Shown piece after piece: positions 23,053 to 41,464 of a DNA stretch of 42,873 bases. The translations under genes were made by a program, and so were the position numbers. Origin of the DNA: a virus (Duplodnaviria > Heunggongvirae > Uroviricota > Caudoviricetes); the IMG/VR virus record IMGVR_UViG_2897369580_000001. The stretch is one strand, 5' to 3'. The stretch's first letter is position 1, and the number at the start of each line of letters is the position of its first letter. The notes below the pieces were generated by a model. It did not search any database. It was not told where the DNA came from and saw only the letters and a list, made by a program, of their open reading frames with translations.

Positions 23053-23232
23053 TTACGCGTCAGGGGGTGTAATAGTATATCCAGCTATTTCTGCCAACTC
23101 GAGAAACGCCATCAGGCTGGCAATCCGCTCATCATCGGTCAGAACACGCACACCAACGATGTGTCCGTCCTTACGCTTGATAACAGCCCGGCATGTTTCC
23201 GGTAGTTCGCCTATAGATTCTTGAATATTCAT
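23053..23232 (-). CDS. Small protein under a LexA-box promoter (SOS-inducible; antirepressor candidate)
   Basis: 59 aa from ATG at 23232 with GGGGGGAAG RBS; promoter and LexA box directly upstream. Confidence 0.5.
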   Translation of the reverse strand: MNIQESIGELPETCRAVIKRKDGHIVGVRVLTDDERIASLMAFLELAEIAGYTITPPDA

Positions 23233-23254
23233 GTCTTCCCCCCAATGCCACAAC

Positions 23255-23270
23255 CTGTATATTTATACAG
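23255..23270. promoter_or_regulatory. LexA (SOS) box overlapping a sigma70-like promoter
   Basis: CTGTATATTTATACAG fits CTGT-N8-ACAG with AT-rich spacer; on minus strand -35 ATGACA, 17-nt spacer, -10 TATAAA inside the box. Confidence 0.7.
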
Positions 23271-23383
23271 TATTTTATGGCATTTGTCATAACGCCAAAT
23301 ACAATGAGGGAATAATGAACAATTATATTCACGTCGTGAATTTTATTAAACGGTTTTATAGGGGATTAAACCGTTTATGGTCA

Positions 23384-24900: not shown

Positions 24901-25389
24901 ATGGCTACCAACCCAAGAGAGCACGCCCGGCGAGTGCTGGACACGTTCTGGTGCGGGCGTGGTTTCCCTGTTGATCCAGCGAAAATTGCTCACGACATGG
25001 GATTAGATGTTTTTATTACCGATCTTCCTGGGAAAGTTTCTGGCGCACTGATTAAACAAAAAGATCAAGATCCAGCGATCTTTCTAAACAGTGATGACAA
25101 CAAAGTTCGTCAACGTTTTTCATGTGGGCATGAGTTGGGGCATTACATCGCCCGGCAAGCATCGCATAGCGATGAATATGAGTACGTTGATTTACGTGGC
25201 GAAACCGCAAGCGCCGGAACGCATCCTGATGAAATTTTTGCAAACAAGTTCGCAGCAGAACTTCTGATGCCGGTAGATGAGGTCAGAAAACTGCACGCTG
25301 ACGGTCAACCAAGTTATATAATGGCGCATTATTTTGGCGTATCTGACGATGCGATGACTTATCGTTTAAAGAACTTGAGGTTGGGGTAA
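24901..25389 (+). CDS. ImmA/IrrE family metallo-endopeptidase (DUF955/COG2856-like)
   Basis: 162 aa; GGAGGAG RBS; HEXXH in ...SCGHELGHYIARQ... typical of ImmA/IrrE zinc peptidases. Confidence 0.8.
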   Translation: MATNPREHARRVLDTFWCGRGFPVDPAKIAHDMGLDVFITDLPGKVSGALIKQKDQDPAIFLNSDDNKVRQRFSCGHELGHYIARQASHSDEYEYVDLRGETASAGTHPDEIFANKFAAELLMPVDEVRKLHADGQPSYIMAHYFGVSDDAMTYRLKNLRLG

Positions 25390-25398
25390 CGCTTTAAA

Positions 25399-26004
25399 AT
25401 GCCATCGGATGACGATTTTAACAGCCGTTTCAAACAGGAAGTAGCACGCAGACTGAAGGATTCCCTCAACCTACACCGTCAGTTAGCAGAAGAGGTTGAG
25501 CCGGAGGACGATGAAACTCCGGTTCAGTCTCCTGACGAAGCTTCACCTCAGCCAAAGGTTTCGCACGCCCCCAAAAAAACGGCTGTCCGTATTCGCGGAA
25601 TAGCCAGAAAAAGAGCTGCCGAAGCTCGCAAAATGGCTGTAGCTGCGTCTAGCAAAAGAATTCCAACTGCTACACCCTCTCAACAAGTCACCCGTACTGA
25701 GAGTAAAATCTTGACCGAGTTCACATCTGTGAAACAGGTGAATTCACTTGATACCGAGCATGAGCGCAAACAACTCAACAACAAAGATTTTGAAGCAGAA
25801 ATCGCTCTAAAAAAACGATACGGGAAATGGTTCCTGATTATCCTTGCTTTCCAACTTCTGATAATGAATGGTGTATTTATTGCCGACGGCGCAGGTAAGC
25901 TGGAATTTGAGGATTTAACACTACAGTTGTACATGGGCGGTACTTTGACAGAGGTATTCGGCCTCGTGCTGGTCGTGACAAAATACCTTTTTAAACGCAA
26001 GTAA
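25399..26004 (+). CDS. Membrane protein with charged N-terminal region and two C-terminal TM helices (putative effector)
   Basis: 201 aa; starts 9 bp after peptidase stop; C-terminal hydrophobic helices; last 72 bp duplicated at 29355..29426. Confidence 0.65.
   Translation: MPSDDDFNSRFKQEVARRLKDSLNLHRQLAEEVEPEDDETPVQSPDEASPQPKVSHAPKKTAVRIRGIARKRAAEARKMAVAASSKRIPTATPSQQVTRTESKILTEFTSVKQVNSLDTEHERKQLNNKDFEAEIALKKRYGKWFLIILAFQLLIMNGVFIADGAGKLEFEDLTLQLYMGGTLTEVFGLVLVVTKYLFKRK
25933..26004 (+). repeat. Direct repeat copy 1 (3' end of membrane-protein gene)
   Basis: 72 bp, about 90% identical to 29355..29426; encodes MGGTLTEVFGLVLVVTKYLFKRK*. Confidence 0.9.
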
Positions 26005-26466: not shown

Positions 26467-27165
26467 TTATATTTTTCCATATTTTTTTCCGTCAAATCGA
26501 ATCATGCCAGGATCAAGAAAATTAATTAAATCGATTAACGCGTGCTGTATTCTGATTAGCCTTTCTTTATAAATTCCGATATCTCTTGTCATATTTATCA
26601 CTTCATTGTTTAAATCTAAAAAAAATGGCTCATTGATAAAGCAATTTTCCTTTGTGAAACTGCCGTAACCTATGCAATCAAATCCAGTATCTGTTGATAT
26701 CAGCATCTTTTCTGCAATAGCTCTCTGCTCTCCTATGAAAAACATAAAATACTGACCAAAGACGTCTGTTTGGATTAATGAGTTAATATTGTTCTGTAAT
26801 CTAATAAACTCCCTCATTTTTTTATTTTTTTCTAGGCTAAGGTATTGAATGTCTATGCGGGCAGCTTCTGTCCATGCAAAAAACTGGGAAAAAAGAAAAA
26901 CAGTATTGTTGATAACATAATCTTGTTGGCGCTTATTCCCATTATGATAAAACTCTTCAATGAACCCCAATTCTAATATATTATAAATACGGCTTTGTAA
27001 GTCTGAAGCTGAGCGAATTAACGGTTCAATATAGTACTGATGTTTTCTCCTTACATCCAGTGATTCATTGAGCTTGTTTATTCTATTCTGATTATAAGTA
27101 GATATAGCAATAGAGATTATAGCTATTGCACCACTAATAAAGCTTGAAATTAATGCCGTACCCAT
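26467..27165 (-). CDS. AT-rich membrane-anchored protein of unknown function (defense/exclusion candidate)
   Basis: 232 aa; N-terminal TM helix ALISSFISGAIAIISIAISTY; Asn/Ile/Lys-rich; sits in visibly AT-rich cassette. Confidence 0.6.
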   Translation of the reverse strand: MGTALISSFISGAIAIISIAISTYNQNRINKLNESLDVRRKHQYYIEPLIRSASDLQSRIYNILELGFIEEFYHNGNKRQQDYVINNTVFLFSQFFAWTEAARIDIQYLSLEKNKKMREFIRLQNNINSLIQTDVFGQYFMFFIGEQRAIAEKMLISTDTGFDCIGYGSFTKENCFINEPFFLDLNNEVINMTRDIGIYKERLIRIQHALIDLINFLDPGMIRFDGKKYGKI

Positions 27166-28352: not shown

Positions 28353-29276
28353 ATGAGATTAAAATACTCAGTACTCTTACTCGCCATTGCCCTTACAGGC
28401 TGTGATAACAAAAAAGATGAGATCGGTTGTTCTTCGGAAATAACCCAGTCAGCTCTCATGGATTTATTAAAAAAATCTGCTTATGAAGGACTCTCTGAAC
28501 AGGTCGATAAATACCCTGATGTCACTAATCAGACCAAACGAAGCACACTGGACAAGATCAAACTAGCCATCTCTGAGATCTCCACAACATCAAGTGACAC
28601 GGGCAGCACAATGAAAACTTGTGAAGGGACCGTGACGATGACTCTATCTGCGAACGAGTACGTCCAGCTTTCAGATGCTTACAGAAAGAATTTTAATCGT
28701 AATCTCGATAAGCAAATGGAAAGCCTGTTTTTGGAGAACAACGCAAACGCCTTTTCAAAACGTATCACCTACACCGTGCAGGCGACCGACGATCAGAAAA
28801 ACGTTTTTGTAAAAACCTCTACTGATAATCCGATATCAGTGGGCGCCGCTTTACTGACATCGCTTTCCATTATCACCCCGATCGTTGAGCAGCAGAAAAT
28901 CCAGCAGGCTAAGGATGCCCAACAGAGTCAAATTGAAGCGGAACAACAGGTGCAACTCAGGGCGCAAGAACAGGCTAAGTATGAGGCGGAGAAGCAAATA
29001 GAGAGACAGGCACAACTTCAGCCGCAAAAAGCTGACAACCTTGATCAGTCCCGAATGGCATTTGCGAATGCCGACTCTGATTTGAGTACCGTCTGGAGCA
29101 AGTTAACCCCGGCGAAGAAAAAAGATTTGCTGCCTTCTCAGCGTCAGTGGATCAAAACTAAGGATGCTATGTGCGGTAAAGTTTCAATGCAGGGAACAGA
29201 TGCTGAAGTCAAGAAAATGGTCGACTGCCAGACGCAAATGACCCTTTCAAGAATCGCTTTCCTCAGAAACCAATAA
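28353..29276 (+). CDS. Lipoprotein with C-terminal DUF1311 (LprI-like) domain
   Basis: 307 aa; signal peptide with lipobox LTGC; Gln-rich coiled-coil middle; C-terminal ...QRQWIKTKDAMCG...DCQTQMTLSRIAFLRN two-Cys motif. Confidence 0.6.
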   Translation: MRLKYSVLLLAIALTGCDNKKDEIGCSSEITQSALMDLLKKSAYEGLSEQVDKYPDVTNQTKRSTLDKIKLAISEISTTSSDTGSTMKTCEGTVTMTLSANEYVQLSDAYRKNFNRNLDKQMESLFLENNANAFSKRITYTVQATDDQKNVFVKTSTDNPISVGAALLTSLSIITPIVEQQKIQQAKDAQQSQIEAEQQVQLRAQEQAKYEAEKQIERQAQLQPQKADNLDQSRMAFANADSDLSTVWSKLTPAKKKDLLPSQRQWIKTKDAMCGKVSMQGTDAEVKKMVDCQTQMTLSRIAFLRNQ

Positions 29277-29323: not shown

Positions 29324-29354
29324 TAGTCATCAAGTGCATATGTAACTGTTTTAT

Positions 29355-29426
29355 ATGGGCGGTACTTTGACAGAGGTATTCGGTCTCGTGCTGGTCGTGG
29401 TCAAATACCTTTTTAAGCGCAAATAG
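29355..29426 (+). repeat. Direct repeat copy 2 (orphan 3' gene end; 23-codon ORF)
   Basis: About 90% identical to 25933..26004; preceded by in-frame stop; encodes MGGTLTEVFGLVLVVVKYLFKRK*. Confidence 0.9.
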
Positions 29427-29450: not shown

Positions 29451-30269
29451 TCAAAATGCTGAATTAGCAACGGATATAGCCGACTTTTTCCCCATTACCA
29501 TCAATTTATCCAGTGTCATACTTCGCAGATTGTCGCTGTGGATCACCAGATACCCTGCCCGCTCAGCGATCTCTTTGAAAGCGTCAAAGGTCATCAGATG
29601 TTCGCCTTTGGCAACATGGCGCATCCCGGTCACTTTTCCATTTTTGATAGTGGTGATAAAAGAAAAATCTGGAATGGTTGGGTGATTTTCATCGAGTAGC
29701 AGGCAGTGGATGTATTCAATCGCCTCTAACATTTGCGTCTGTGACAGTTGTTCTATGTGAGAGACGGCGAAGCGTTGATGAATCATGGTGTAGGCATCGG
29801 GATACATCATGCCTTTCTTGCCGACCAGTATATTAACGGCATCACGCAAGGGAGTACGGTCATCGGTAGTTGTACTCCGCCTCTCTGGACGCTGGCTAAA
29901 ATAACAATCTTCCAGCTTTTCGAAAACTTCCCAGGCCTGTTCTGTTTCCAGCATTTTGGCATGGCGAGCTGCGCCGCGTTCTGTCCAGAGAATGAGGGAT
30001 CGGGTATGTTTAGCAACTGACTGACTATCTGTCAGTCTGTTTTTGAAGTCGCGTAATTCATTACCTTCCAGCTTAAAAAAATGCTTTCCTACGACAAATC
30101 TGGCGATGTTGCGCTTGAAGTTTTGCTGGATACCATTTACTTCCGTGCCATACAAACTGGCAAGCAATTCAGTAGTGATGACGGGAAGTTGGTTATGATG
30201 TAGCGGAGAAAGGGATTCCGCAGATATTTGGACTGTCATCGCAGTGGCCTCACTTAGTGTTTTTTTCAT
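29451..30269 (-). CDS. Phage antirepressor-like protein (ORF6N/Ant N-terminal-like domain)
   Basis: 272 aa from ATG at 30269; N-terminal ...LPVITTELLASLYGTEVNGIQQNFKRNIARFVVGKHFFKL... resembles Ant/ORF6N regions. Confidence 0.55.
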   Translation of the reverse strand: MKKTLSEATAMTVQISAESLSPLHHNQLPVITTELLASLYGTEVNGIQQNFKRNIARFVVGKHFFKLEGNELRDFKNRLTDSQSVAKHTRSLILWTERGAARHAKMLETEQAWEVFEKLEDCYFSQRPERRSTTTDDRTPLRDAVNILVGKKGMMYPDAYTMIHQRFAVSHIEQLSQTQMLEAIEYIHCLLLDENHPTIPDFSFITTIKNGKVTGMRHVAKGEHLMTFDAFKEIAERAGYLVIHSDNLRSMTLDKLMVMGKKSAISVANSAF

Positions 30270-30301
30270 CACCACCAGCGACGCCAATCATCTGGTGGTG
30301 A
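30269..30301. promoter_or_regulatory. 10-bp inverted repeat abutting antirepressor start codon
   Basis: TCACCACCAG-N13-CTGGTGGTGA; 3' arm contains the probable RBS. Confidence 0.4.
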
Positions 30302-30511
30302 GCTGTGCAGGGTTGGCGTAACCGGCTAAGTGAACCCGGCGCTTCCACAGAAGCCCCCACACAGCCCACCATAATGCGAATGTGGCCGTGCCTAACACAT
30401 AAAAAAACCGCTAACGCGGCTATGCGTCACTTAGATATCCGGGACGCCAATCCCGGCAACCGATTTTGCGGCTGCGCGGAAACTATAGCCCCGGACTTTT
30501 TCTAAGTCAAT

Positions 30512-30733
30512 TCAATCAACTTCAAACCTCCGGTGTTCACATTCCATACACTCAACGGGAACATCATCGCGATGCAAGTCCACATATCCGACCCGCTTAT
30601 ACAACTCAATAATGTCCGGTAACGTGACCAGATGTTTTTCCGGTTCCAACACCTCAGCCCGGGTTACTTTGTAATCTGAAATATAGAGCACTATCCGCCC
30701 GTTCCGTGGTAACTCCAGTTTATCGCCAAACAT
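30512..30733 (-). CDS. Hypothetical small protein
   Basis: 73-aa ORF co-oriented with early-right operon. Confidence 0.35.
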   Translation of the reverse strand: MFGDKLELPRNGRIVLYISDYKVTRAEVLEPEKHLVTLPDIIELYKRVGYVDLHRDDVPVECMECEHRRFEVD

Positions 30734-35421: not shown

Positions 35422-35835
35422 ATGAACACAAAAACGAAAAACATGGCTTTTGCTAGCCGACTACAACGGATTCTAAAAGACTTAGGCTGGTCTCAATCTG
35501 AGTTAGCTCGCCATATTGGGGTTACGGCTCAATCAGTTCAGGCATGGTGTAATGGGGTAACTCCAAGAAAAGATAAATTAGACAAGCTAGCAAAAGTGAC
35601 CGGATACCCTGTTCATTTTTTCTTCATGAATGAAGGGGAATATTTGGATGAATCCACACTACACCCGGGTAATTACAATCAAGAACTAACCCCGCAAGAA
35701 CAGGCTCTACTGCAACTATTCAGAGGACTGCCTGAGAGCGAAAAAAATAAATTAATCAATGAGCTAAAAGAAAAAAGAGAGCACTTCGATCTACTGCTAA
35801 AAGAACTACTTGAAGCCAAAAACCAGACAAAATAG
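35422..35835 (+). CDS. Prophage repressor, DicA-like (N-terminal XRE HTH, no S24 peptidase domain)
   Basis: N-terminal HTH SQSELARHIGVTAQSVQAWCNG; C-terminal ...LTPQEQALLQLFRGLPESEKNKL...LLKELLEAKNQTK resembles DicA C-terminus. Confidence 0.7.
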   Translation: MNTKTKNMAFASRLQRILKDLGWSQSELARHIGVTAQSVQAWCNGVTPRKDKLDKLAKVTGYPVHFFFMNEGEYLDESTLHPGNYNQELTPQEQALLQLFRGLPESEKNKLINELKEKREHFDLLLKELLEAKNQTK

Positions 35836-39979: not shown

Positions 39980-40045
39980 TGCTTAAACTCACATTAAAGC
40001 GTGGTGACGCGGTTCTGAAGTGGTCAACAAAAACTGGCCACCGAG

Positions 40046-41193
<1,148 letters not shown>

Positions 41194-41464
41194 TATGGCA
41201 CCTGTGTTGTTCTGAGGTGAGCATATCACCTCTGTTCAGGTGGCCAAATTCAGTAAACCACTTCAGTTCACCTGGTACTTGCCGATGGTACCAATGGCAT
41301 TATTGAAGCACGGAGCCGCTGCGAACTTGGGCTACACCTGCCAGAAAACATTAAGGTCACTCGGGAGAAATCGGCATTCACCCCACAAGAACTGATTACG
41401 CCTAATCAGAAATAAAAACTCACCATCGCTAGCATTGCGATTCACCAGACACCGGAGGATCACA

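Follow-up and report, generated by a model that had tools for sequence, protein, structure and literature searches.

The 42,873-nucleotide (nt) stretch of viral DNA analyzed here (IMG/VR record IMGVR_UViG_2897369580_000001, in the following called the window) is an Escherichia coli prophage which extends from the tail genes to the integrase. The region 30510..29451 on its minus strand very probably constitutes an immI-type antisense RNA cassette of this prophage, in which a perfect palindrome upstream of an antirepressor gene represents the a2 target stem-loop. The cassette is homologous to isrK-"orf45" (C4/STnc1160)-anrP of Gifsy-1, analogous to c4-icd-ant of P1 and P7, and a further example of a known and very common system. 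A preliminary description of the locus had pointed to the palindrome and to the gene behind it, and considered the repeat as a protein operator or as an mRNA hairpin that blocks translation.

Structured RNAs in the leader of the gene were searched with the Rfam models isrK (RF01394), c4-a1b1 (RF03163) and C4 (RF01695), and hits were judged by the gathering cut-offs (GA). All three curated RNAs were found within 270 nt, on the strand of the gene, above GA and in the expected order. The leader contains the following features:

30482..30510, minus: promoter-like site P_isrK (TTGACT-17-TATAGT), 10 of 12 consensus matches, start predicted at about 30475
30488..30436, minus: c4-a1b1 motif (RF03163, 52.9 bits, GA 46.7), overlapping isrK
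30475..30401, minus: isrK small RNA (sRNA; RF01394, 80.4 bits, GA 50)
30450..30444, minus: a1 (UUGGCGU), in the loop of a CCGGG/CCCGG hairpin, exact complement of a'
30434..30427, minus: b1 (CUAAGUGA), exact complement of b'
30421..30406 plus a U7 run, minus: intrinsic terminator of IsrK, from a terminator scan
30376..30291, minus: C4 antisense RNA (RF01695, 75.2 bits, GA 45, model positions 1-87 of 87)
30371..30355 with 30312..30296, minus: closing stem of C4, 17 base pairs (bp), from the Rfam alignment and also found in the repeat search
within C4, minus: first internal hairpin, GCUUC-UGUG-GAAGC
30333..30326, minus: b' loop (UCACUUAG) of the second C4 hairpin
30320..30313, minus: a' (UACGCCAA) in the C4 junction
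3' tail of C4, minus: ends in UCACCACC(AG)
30250..30372, minus: frame of 40 codons, counterpart of orf45, from AUGG at the C4 5' end to UGA inside b2 and the Shine-Dalgarno sequence (SD); translation uncertain
30269..30301, minus: a2 stem-loop (the palindrome), TCACCACCAG-N13-CTGGTGGTGA, exact, 10/10 bp
30301..30292, minus: 5' arm of the palindrome, formed by the final ten bases of the Rfam C4 hit, of which six are part of the C4 closing stem
30287..30281, minus: a2 (UUGGCGU), inside the 13-nt palindrome loop, exact 7-nt complement of a'
30278..30269, minus: 3' arm of the palindrome (CUGGUGGUGA)
30257..30250, minus: b2 (CUAAGUGA), exact 8-nt complement of the b' loop

The position of P_isrK fits the 5' end of isrK, as the Rfam match begins at 30475. 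The closing stem of C4 is present in the minimum free energy (MFE) fold (z = -3.4), and a tRNA-like acceptor stem followed by ACCACC is visible in this RNA. The words of a1 and b1 are identical to those of a2 and b2. b2 overlaps the SD GAGG (30251..30248), and 10 nt separate it from the start codon. Control of the cassette by LexA was considered and rejected, since there is no LexA box near P_isrK; the only perfect box of the window is located at 23255..23270.

The same arrangement was found in a large number of related genomes. Of 5426 complete E. coli genomes, 2704 (about half) carry the leader with isrK and C4 according to a blastn search, and so do many Stx phages. A megablast search of the locus against the phage collection gave no match, and the more distant blastn setting was needed. 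A query of 1.4 kb around the cassette shows at least 99% identity in about 450 complete E. coli genomes, with about 440 carrying most of the query, and is 100% identical in the listed records. For comparison we used 15 diverged loci together with P1 and Gifsy-1; the 17 aligned loci mentioned below are the window, the 15 relatives and P1. Rfam detects the pair of isrK and C4 in all 15 diverged loci and in Gifsy-1. Exact complementarity of a' with a2 (7 nt) and of b' with b2 (7-9 nt) was found throughout the 17 loci. When each b' was compared with each b2, the match to the own locus was the longest or joint longest in 16 of the 17 rows, with rare chance matches elsewhere downstream. The a' sequences form six shared specificity classes and match within their class only. 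a1 and b1 show similar cognate matching in most loci. In P1, a2 starts 3 nt past the mature C4 3' end; for the remaining 16 loci, counted from where the Rfam match to C4 stops, the value is 3-6 nt. Across the loci, b2 is located at the ribosome binding site (RBS) or at the start of the next gene; in the P1 annotation it lies 10 nt before the ATG of icd, the same distance as here. The gene after the cassette varies and encodes ORF6N, Ant, BRO-N, Rha, P22AR-C, Icd-like or unknown proteins.

One of the relatives, a P2/186-like prophage of the E. coli UTI89 type (L015), carries isrK and C4 with their own a'/b' specificity at 1209..1696, upstream of a gene for a hypothetical protein of 76 amino acids (aa), which adjoins a P2-type replication endonuclease. 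C4 cassettes therefore appear to gate small unknown proteins in P2-like phages, too. A pattern scan for C4 in viral contigs gave 38 stretches, 2 of which were true C4, and at least one true C4 was present among the matches listed for genome contigs. The degenerate pattern mostly matched the complements of alpha- and beta-proteobacterial tRNA genes (e.g., L059, L078 and L116) and also GC-rich chance sequences; the matches to tRNA genes indicate that the C4 sequence is strongly tRNA-like.

The inverted repeat of the preliminary description was confirmed as exact, with all ten bases of the two arms complementary. The window contains 7 distinct perfect inverted repeats of at least 10 bp with a loop of at most 20 nt, compared to 0.75 expected from 200 dinucleotide shuffles, so that such repeats are enriched about ten-fold and would rarely arise by chance. 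The stem-loops of a1 and a2 both have the apex GA-UUGGCG-UC. The a2 stem-loop is built like its a1 counterpart in the Rfam motif c4-a1b1 and presents its target in the apical loop. None of the 17 aligned loci lacks it. Most often the outer stem reads UCACCACC/GGUGGUGA, and the inner stem around a2 varies between GCGA/UCGC, CUGA/UCAG, GAGA/UCUC, CCGA/UCGG and GAAA/UUUC. Compensatory changes are found in L003 (UCGCCACC/GGUGGCGA), L006 (CCUC/GAGG) and P1 (CCUGCCACCU/GGGUAGCAGG). In an alignment of 18 sequences, pairing is possible in 88.6% of the cells, and both partners are altered in 5 of the 11 pairs. The observed covariation was reached by none of 500 shuffles, and slid controls gave 30-67%. 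The a2 helix was independently predicted by RNAalifold with 5 compensatory pairs. Examples from more distant bacteria were taken from the C4 alignment in the supplement of Weinberg et al. (2010). In Acinetobacter baumannii the hairpin reads UGCCACC...GGUGGUG with UUGGUCU as a2 in the loop, and the rows of Haemophilus show UCUACCGC...GCGGUAGA, a further compensatory change, with GUGGAAA or GUGACAA as a2 in the loop.

These data bear directly on the nature of the palindrome. A DNA operator for a dimeric protein, e.g., the prophage repressor, could control transcription of the antirepressor gene, and a perfect 10-bp inverted repeat with 23 bp from centre to centre has the appearance of such a site. 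The symmetric changes of the arms between phages could then mean operators of differing specificity. We regard this explanation, which the preliminary description had offered, as extremely unlikely. The repeat belongs to the transcribed leader and follows the only promoter-like site at a distance of about 175-205 nt, and its 5' arm is the 3' end of C4, so that one arm lies within the C4 RNA gene and is constrained by C4. The arms are separated by 9 to 22 nt in the different loci, and in L004, L008, L013 and A. baumannii their pairing is preserved only by means of G-U, a solution open to RNA and not to a palindrome in DNA. G-U pairs and variable spacing argue for an RNA helix and not for a DNA operator. 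In addition, the immunity intergenic region holds no similar sequence.

An intrinsic terminator or attenuator, which stops read-through after C4, is highly improbable as well, although hairpins of this kind are labelled as predicted terminators for several genomes in the work of Weinberg et al. (PMC2864571 supplement) and L002 has GUUUUAU past the stem. In the window the stem is followed by UGAAAAAAACA without a U run, the terminator scan does not report the a2 hairpin, and most relatives are devoid of a U tract. The palindrome is an element of control at the RNA level: its loop displays a2, and a different duplex, that of b' and b2, covers the RBS. The a2 hairpin is not part of the Rfam models C4 or c4-a1b1. 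Its location over the C4 3' end, kept across gamma-proteobacteria yet unmodelled, is a fresh point of this analysis, alongside the LexA box and the 59-aa ORF behind it, which are described below.

The gene controlled by the cassette has the following features:

29451..30239, minus: antirepressor gene, 262 aa plus stop, ATG 30239 as the most likely start
aa 14-96 of the product: ORF6N domain
aa 104-183: centre similar to P22 Ant
aa ~197-238: C-terminus similar to phrog_340

The open reading frame (ORF) list gives a minus-strand ORF from 29451 to 30287 when counted from the first TTG. The RefSeq protein WP_001531776.1 (262 aa) places the start at ATG 30239, which is preceded by the SD GAGG at 30251..30248 with a spacer of 8 nt. 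From this codon the N-terminus reads MTVQISAESLSP, and its counterpart in Gifsy-1 AnrP is MTTQISVETLSP; the N-terminus MT(V/T)QIS..LSP is kept in L002, L003 and Gifsy-1 AnrP. The preliminary description let the palindrome abut the ATG and placed the likely RBS in its 3' arm. Both positions have to be corrected, as the palindrome ends 29 nt before the real start and 17 nt before the real SD.

A self-contained mRNA hairpin, which hides the RBS or the start codon and blocks ribosomes unaided, was the second function proposed at first. It could refer to the in-frame ATG 30269..30267, which shares its A with the 3' arm, and the MFE structure of the long RNA offers a pairing of the 3' arm and a2 with the real AUG region. 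Nevertheless, it is very unlikely. The hairpin contains neither the SD nor the start codon, and the conserved, annotated start has its own SD 17 nt beyond. The ATG next to the arm has no SD at a proper distance, just GGTGG 2 nt before it; most relatives lack this codon or have it in another frame, and it is missing in Gifsy-1, L002, L003, L006, L007 and L009. The pairing with the AUG region, seen in the MFE structure of this window, would not be conserved, since it depends on the sequence of the downstream gene, which differs between the loci; it was not relied on.

The assignment as an antirepressor-like gene was confirmed by several searches. Pfam ORF6N (PF10543) was found with E = 1e-21 (77.5 bits, cut-off 27.8), and PHROG 4792, annotated as "anti-repressor", matches the ORF end to end (E = 1.5e-165). 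Identity to Gifsy-1 AnrP is 66% over the N-terminal 137 aa (E = 4e-63). The central segment, aa 104-183, is 52% identical to aa ~111-192 of P22 Ant. The C-terminal half matches PHROG antirepressor families and phrog_340. Of the two domains suggested for verification, ORF6N and KilAC, only the first was found; KilA-C/ANT (PF03374) or ORF6C gave no Pfam match even at E <= 1. A PDB sequence search with Ant gave no match, hence no solved homologue was found, and NCBIfam gave no match either. The homology to ORF6N proteins, AnrP and P22 Ant supports Ant as an antirepressor, which is predicted to inactivate a repressor. The numbering as a "second" antirepressor could not be retained, because no other one was found among the 21 ORFs scanned in the early region or in the RefSeq annotation.

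From the RNA identities, the complementarities, the conserved and covarying hairpin and the protein homology we infer how the cassette would be transcribed and processed and would act in vivo. A promoter of constitutive look would make the short IsrK, with the decoy sites a1 and b1 and its own terminator. Read-through would yield a long RNA in which C4 is followed by a2, by b2 with the SD and finally by the antirepressor gene. The C4 RNA, about 77 nt long and similar to a tRNA, would pair via a' with a2 and via b' with b2. The pairing of a' with a2 would be the first contact, presented in a loop, and the duplex of b' and b2 would cover the SD, so that no antirepressor is translated and the prophage repressor stays active. 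In P1, untranslated ant RNA is also prematurely terminated. An excess of IsrK, by its a1 and b1 sites, may titrate C4 or remodel the long RNA and in this way turn translation on, as in Gifsy-1. There, the long read-through RNA is translationally silent, and the short IsrK activates anrP translation in trans (PMC4825925). The decoy idea for a1 and b1 and the c4-a1b1 motif were described before (PMC2864571 supplement). For P1, later accounts of the original work state that C4 binds a2 and b2, blocks translation at the RBS and prevents antirepressor synthesis (Citron and Schuster, 1990, as cited in PMC12197685, PMC8198154 and the supplement of PMC2864571). The 5' end of P1 C4 is matured by RNase P, according to the citation of Hartmann (1995) in PMC11143913.

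Several points weigh against the assignment as an immI-type cassette. P_isrK is known from its consensus match only. A repressor-operator-like repeat common to P_isrK and the immunity intergenic region was not found, unlike Op51 of P1. An icd gene between b2 and ant is absent, and ant directly follows b2, again unlike P1. The antirepressor activity of ORF6N proteins is deduced from homologues. Furthermore, when the ensemble of the unprocessed RNA was modelled thermodynamically, the complete 10-bp hairpin came out 0.8-11.5 kcal/mol less favourable than the complete C4 closing stem, and this held for all 16 loci modelled. Excision of C4 would remove the 5' arm of the hairpin together with C4. 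Only the inner part of the hairpin, which forms with no bases of C4, can be counted on to be available.

The 5' arm of the palindrome is at the same time the 3' strand of the C4 closing stem. The hairpin and the outer 6 bp of this stem are therefore mutually exclusive, as they share 6 nt. It is possible, but at present a tentative idea, that this competition works as an RNA switch. The hairpin would capture the 3' strand of the closing stem (..UCACCA) and open the base of the stem, and the fold of the leader would co-decide on Ant synthesis. As a result, the AUGG of the orf45-like frame would be exposed, or the CCA tail would be hidden and maturation by RNase P blocked. Co-variation in L003 involves all three strands (U>C in the 5' strand, A>G in the 3' strand and U>C in the 3' arm), and the overlap has been retained in Enterobacteriaceae as well as in Acinetobacter and Haemophilus. 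Weinberg et al. saw hairpins overlapping the 3' half of P1 and suggested possible cis-regulation (PMC2864571 supplement). Translation of orf45 and anrP of Gifsy-1 needs the opening of helix d-II (PMC4825925), and the upstream frame in the window ends at a UGA inside the SD, 10 nt before the ATG of ant. On the other hand, the full closing stem is predicted to be the stabler structure in every locus and is transcribed first. The upstream frame is variable in length and frame: L002, L015 and P1 have 8-16 codons, and other loci show in-frame fusions. The Gifsy-1 study models nt 1-180 only and ends before the 3' arm of the a2 hairpin (PMC4825925).

The frame upstream of ant deserves attention on its own. 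In Gifsy-1 (L182 34076..34214), the published orf45 starts at AUGG, which is the 5' end of the Rfam C4 (STnc1160). We equate the published helix d-II of Gifsy-1 with the C4 closing stem, because d-II holds the RBS of orf45 and the AUGG is located at the C4 5' end. A frame of the orf45 type is open to near the start of the downstream gene in 12 of 18 loci, compared to 7 and 5 for the other frames, a bias that is suggestive only. A conserved coding upstream ORF through C4 was rejected, since the length ranges from 8 to 261 codons and the frame is not conserved as a protein. In RefSeq, coding sequences of the "ash family", N-terminally extended members of the "Rha family" and "Icd-like" coding sequences span isrK and C4 (L006, L007, L008, L013 and L014); they appear to be RNA genes annotated as protein. 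In the SK1144 record neither isrK nor C4 is annotated as non-coding RNA.

The prophage itself is 99.99% identical to the SK1144 prophage beside tRNA-Leu/pgsA, barring one insertion sequence (IS). Its repressor (35443..35835), a protein of 130 aa, contains an HTH_3/DicA-like domain as the single domain and lacks an S24 peptidase domain. Short, non-cleaved repressors form a class which is inactivated by antirepressors and not by self-cleavage (Lemire et al., PMC3121763), and expression of AnrP induces Gifsy-1 (PMC4825925).

Two small ORFs of the window are related to the C-terminal domain of Ant. The first one, with 59 aa (MNIQESIGELPETCRAVIKRKDGHIVGV...; 23232..23053, minus), belongs to phrog_340 and is a paralogue of this domain (E = 4e-07). 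A near-consensus LexA box (TACTGTATAAATATACAG; 23271..23254, minus) overlaps a promoter-like region 21 nt upstream of it and is kept upstream of homologues with 75% identity in related prophages. This ORF is a candidate for an SOS-controlled small antirepressor against the non-cleavable DicA-like repressor. The second one, with 73 aa (30733..30512, minus), ends 1 nt before the -35 region of P_isrK and is unannotated in some RefSeq genomes. It is a third phrog_340 member and homologous to Ant ~198-238 (E = 3e-05). Gifsy-1 has a LexA-controlled GfoA and an IsrK-controlled AnrP (PMC3121763, PMC4825925). By analogy, the prophage may have SOS-gated and RNA-gated antirepressors that share one domain. 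No significant link between the 59-aa ORF and GfoA was found by tblastn against phages, by BLASTP of a GfoA candidate against AnrP or by a PHROG scan, and the C-terminus of AnrP matches phrog_340 only at E = 0.094. The layered control or cross-talk between antirepressors which the preliminary description suggested is plausible in view of the Gifsy-1 precedent. With limited confidence, the a2 stem-loop might be seen as a conserved third element of C4 cassettes, which couples C4 maturation or AUG exposure to target access, with the SOS-gated paralogue as an additional input onto one repressor. If this is true, the cassette would be a self-timing RNA device and not a simple pair of antisense and target.

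Further features were observed in the surroundings of the gene. A direct repeat of 78 bp with about 90% identity (25926..26003 and 29348..29425) flanks a segment of 3.4 kb, and one copy is located just downstream of the ant stop codon. The segment contains a gene for an LprI-family lipoprotein (28353..29276) and a phrog_5606 gene (26467..27165). The repeats may represent a moron insertion or a recombination scar. At 24901..26004 on the plus strand, a gene for an ImmA/IrrE-type metallopeptidase (Peptidase_M78, E = 8e-18) is followed by a phrog_5346 gene of 201 aa. This pair is an accessory module of two genes, transcribed against the surrounding early genes. Compared to the SK1144 prophage, an insertion of about 1.25 kb is present at 40016..41265 near the integrase end. 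It contains a transposase ORF (40046..40864, phrog_157), which identifies it as an IS element.

Taken up in this way, the locus provides a concrete and testable proposal for the control of the prophage, in which an antirepressor is gated by the RNAs IsrK and C4. In addition, the annotated sequence supports a corrected start codon, and the probable misannotation of isrK and C4 genes as proteins is exposed. Shared a'/b' specificities could let co-resident prophages cross-regulate their antirepressors.

The closest known system is that of Gifsy-1 in Salmonella Typhimurium (Hershko-Shalev et al., 2016; PMC4825925). Order and strand of isrK, terminator, C4, a2 hairpin, b2 over the SD and ORF6N antirepressor are the same, with TCACCACC...GGTGGTGA as the a2 hairpin in Gifsy-1, and both prophages have a short repressor without a cleavage domain. 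However, b' is CGGUGAU in Gifsy-1 and UCACUUAG here. Ant has 262 aa compared to 187 aa of AnrP; the C-terminal half differs, and the P22-Ant-like segment is added here. In the window, the frame upstream of ant comprises 40 codons and terminates 10 nt ahead of the ATG, whereas Gifsy-1 has 45 codons and an ATGA overlap. The antiterminator gene Q is not the upstream neighbour here.

The immI region of P1 and P7 (c4-icd-ant1/2; NC_005856) shares the C4 fold, a1 and b1 upstream, a2 and b2 downstream and an antirepressor as product. In P1, too, a2 comes first after C4 and is presented by a hairpin loop; the C4 3' end serves as 5' arm of this hairpin, and b2 precedes the start codon by 10 nt. The target in P1 is the RBS of icd, and ant follows by coupling, whereas here ant is targeted directly. 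A C1 operator is located at the P1 promoter, but none is evident here. The RNA with a1 and b1 has its own terminator in the window, which makes IsrK an sRNA of its own. The Ant proteins do not all belong to one family.

The CI RNA of P4 (seqA/seqC) was cited as a structural analogue of IsrK (PMC4825925). It is processed from the leader of the operon it controls and has complementary sites upstream and downstream. In contrast to the occlusion of an antirepressor RBS, CI causes premature transcription termination of replication genes. In the sar/ant system of P22, an antirepressor with a homologous centre (52% identity) is restrained by an antisense RNA as well. However, sar is encoded in cis on the opposite strand across the ant RBS, alongside Arc and Mnt, and the P22 system works without a C4-like trans-acting RNA and without the a/b target pairs that characterize the cassette described here.

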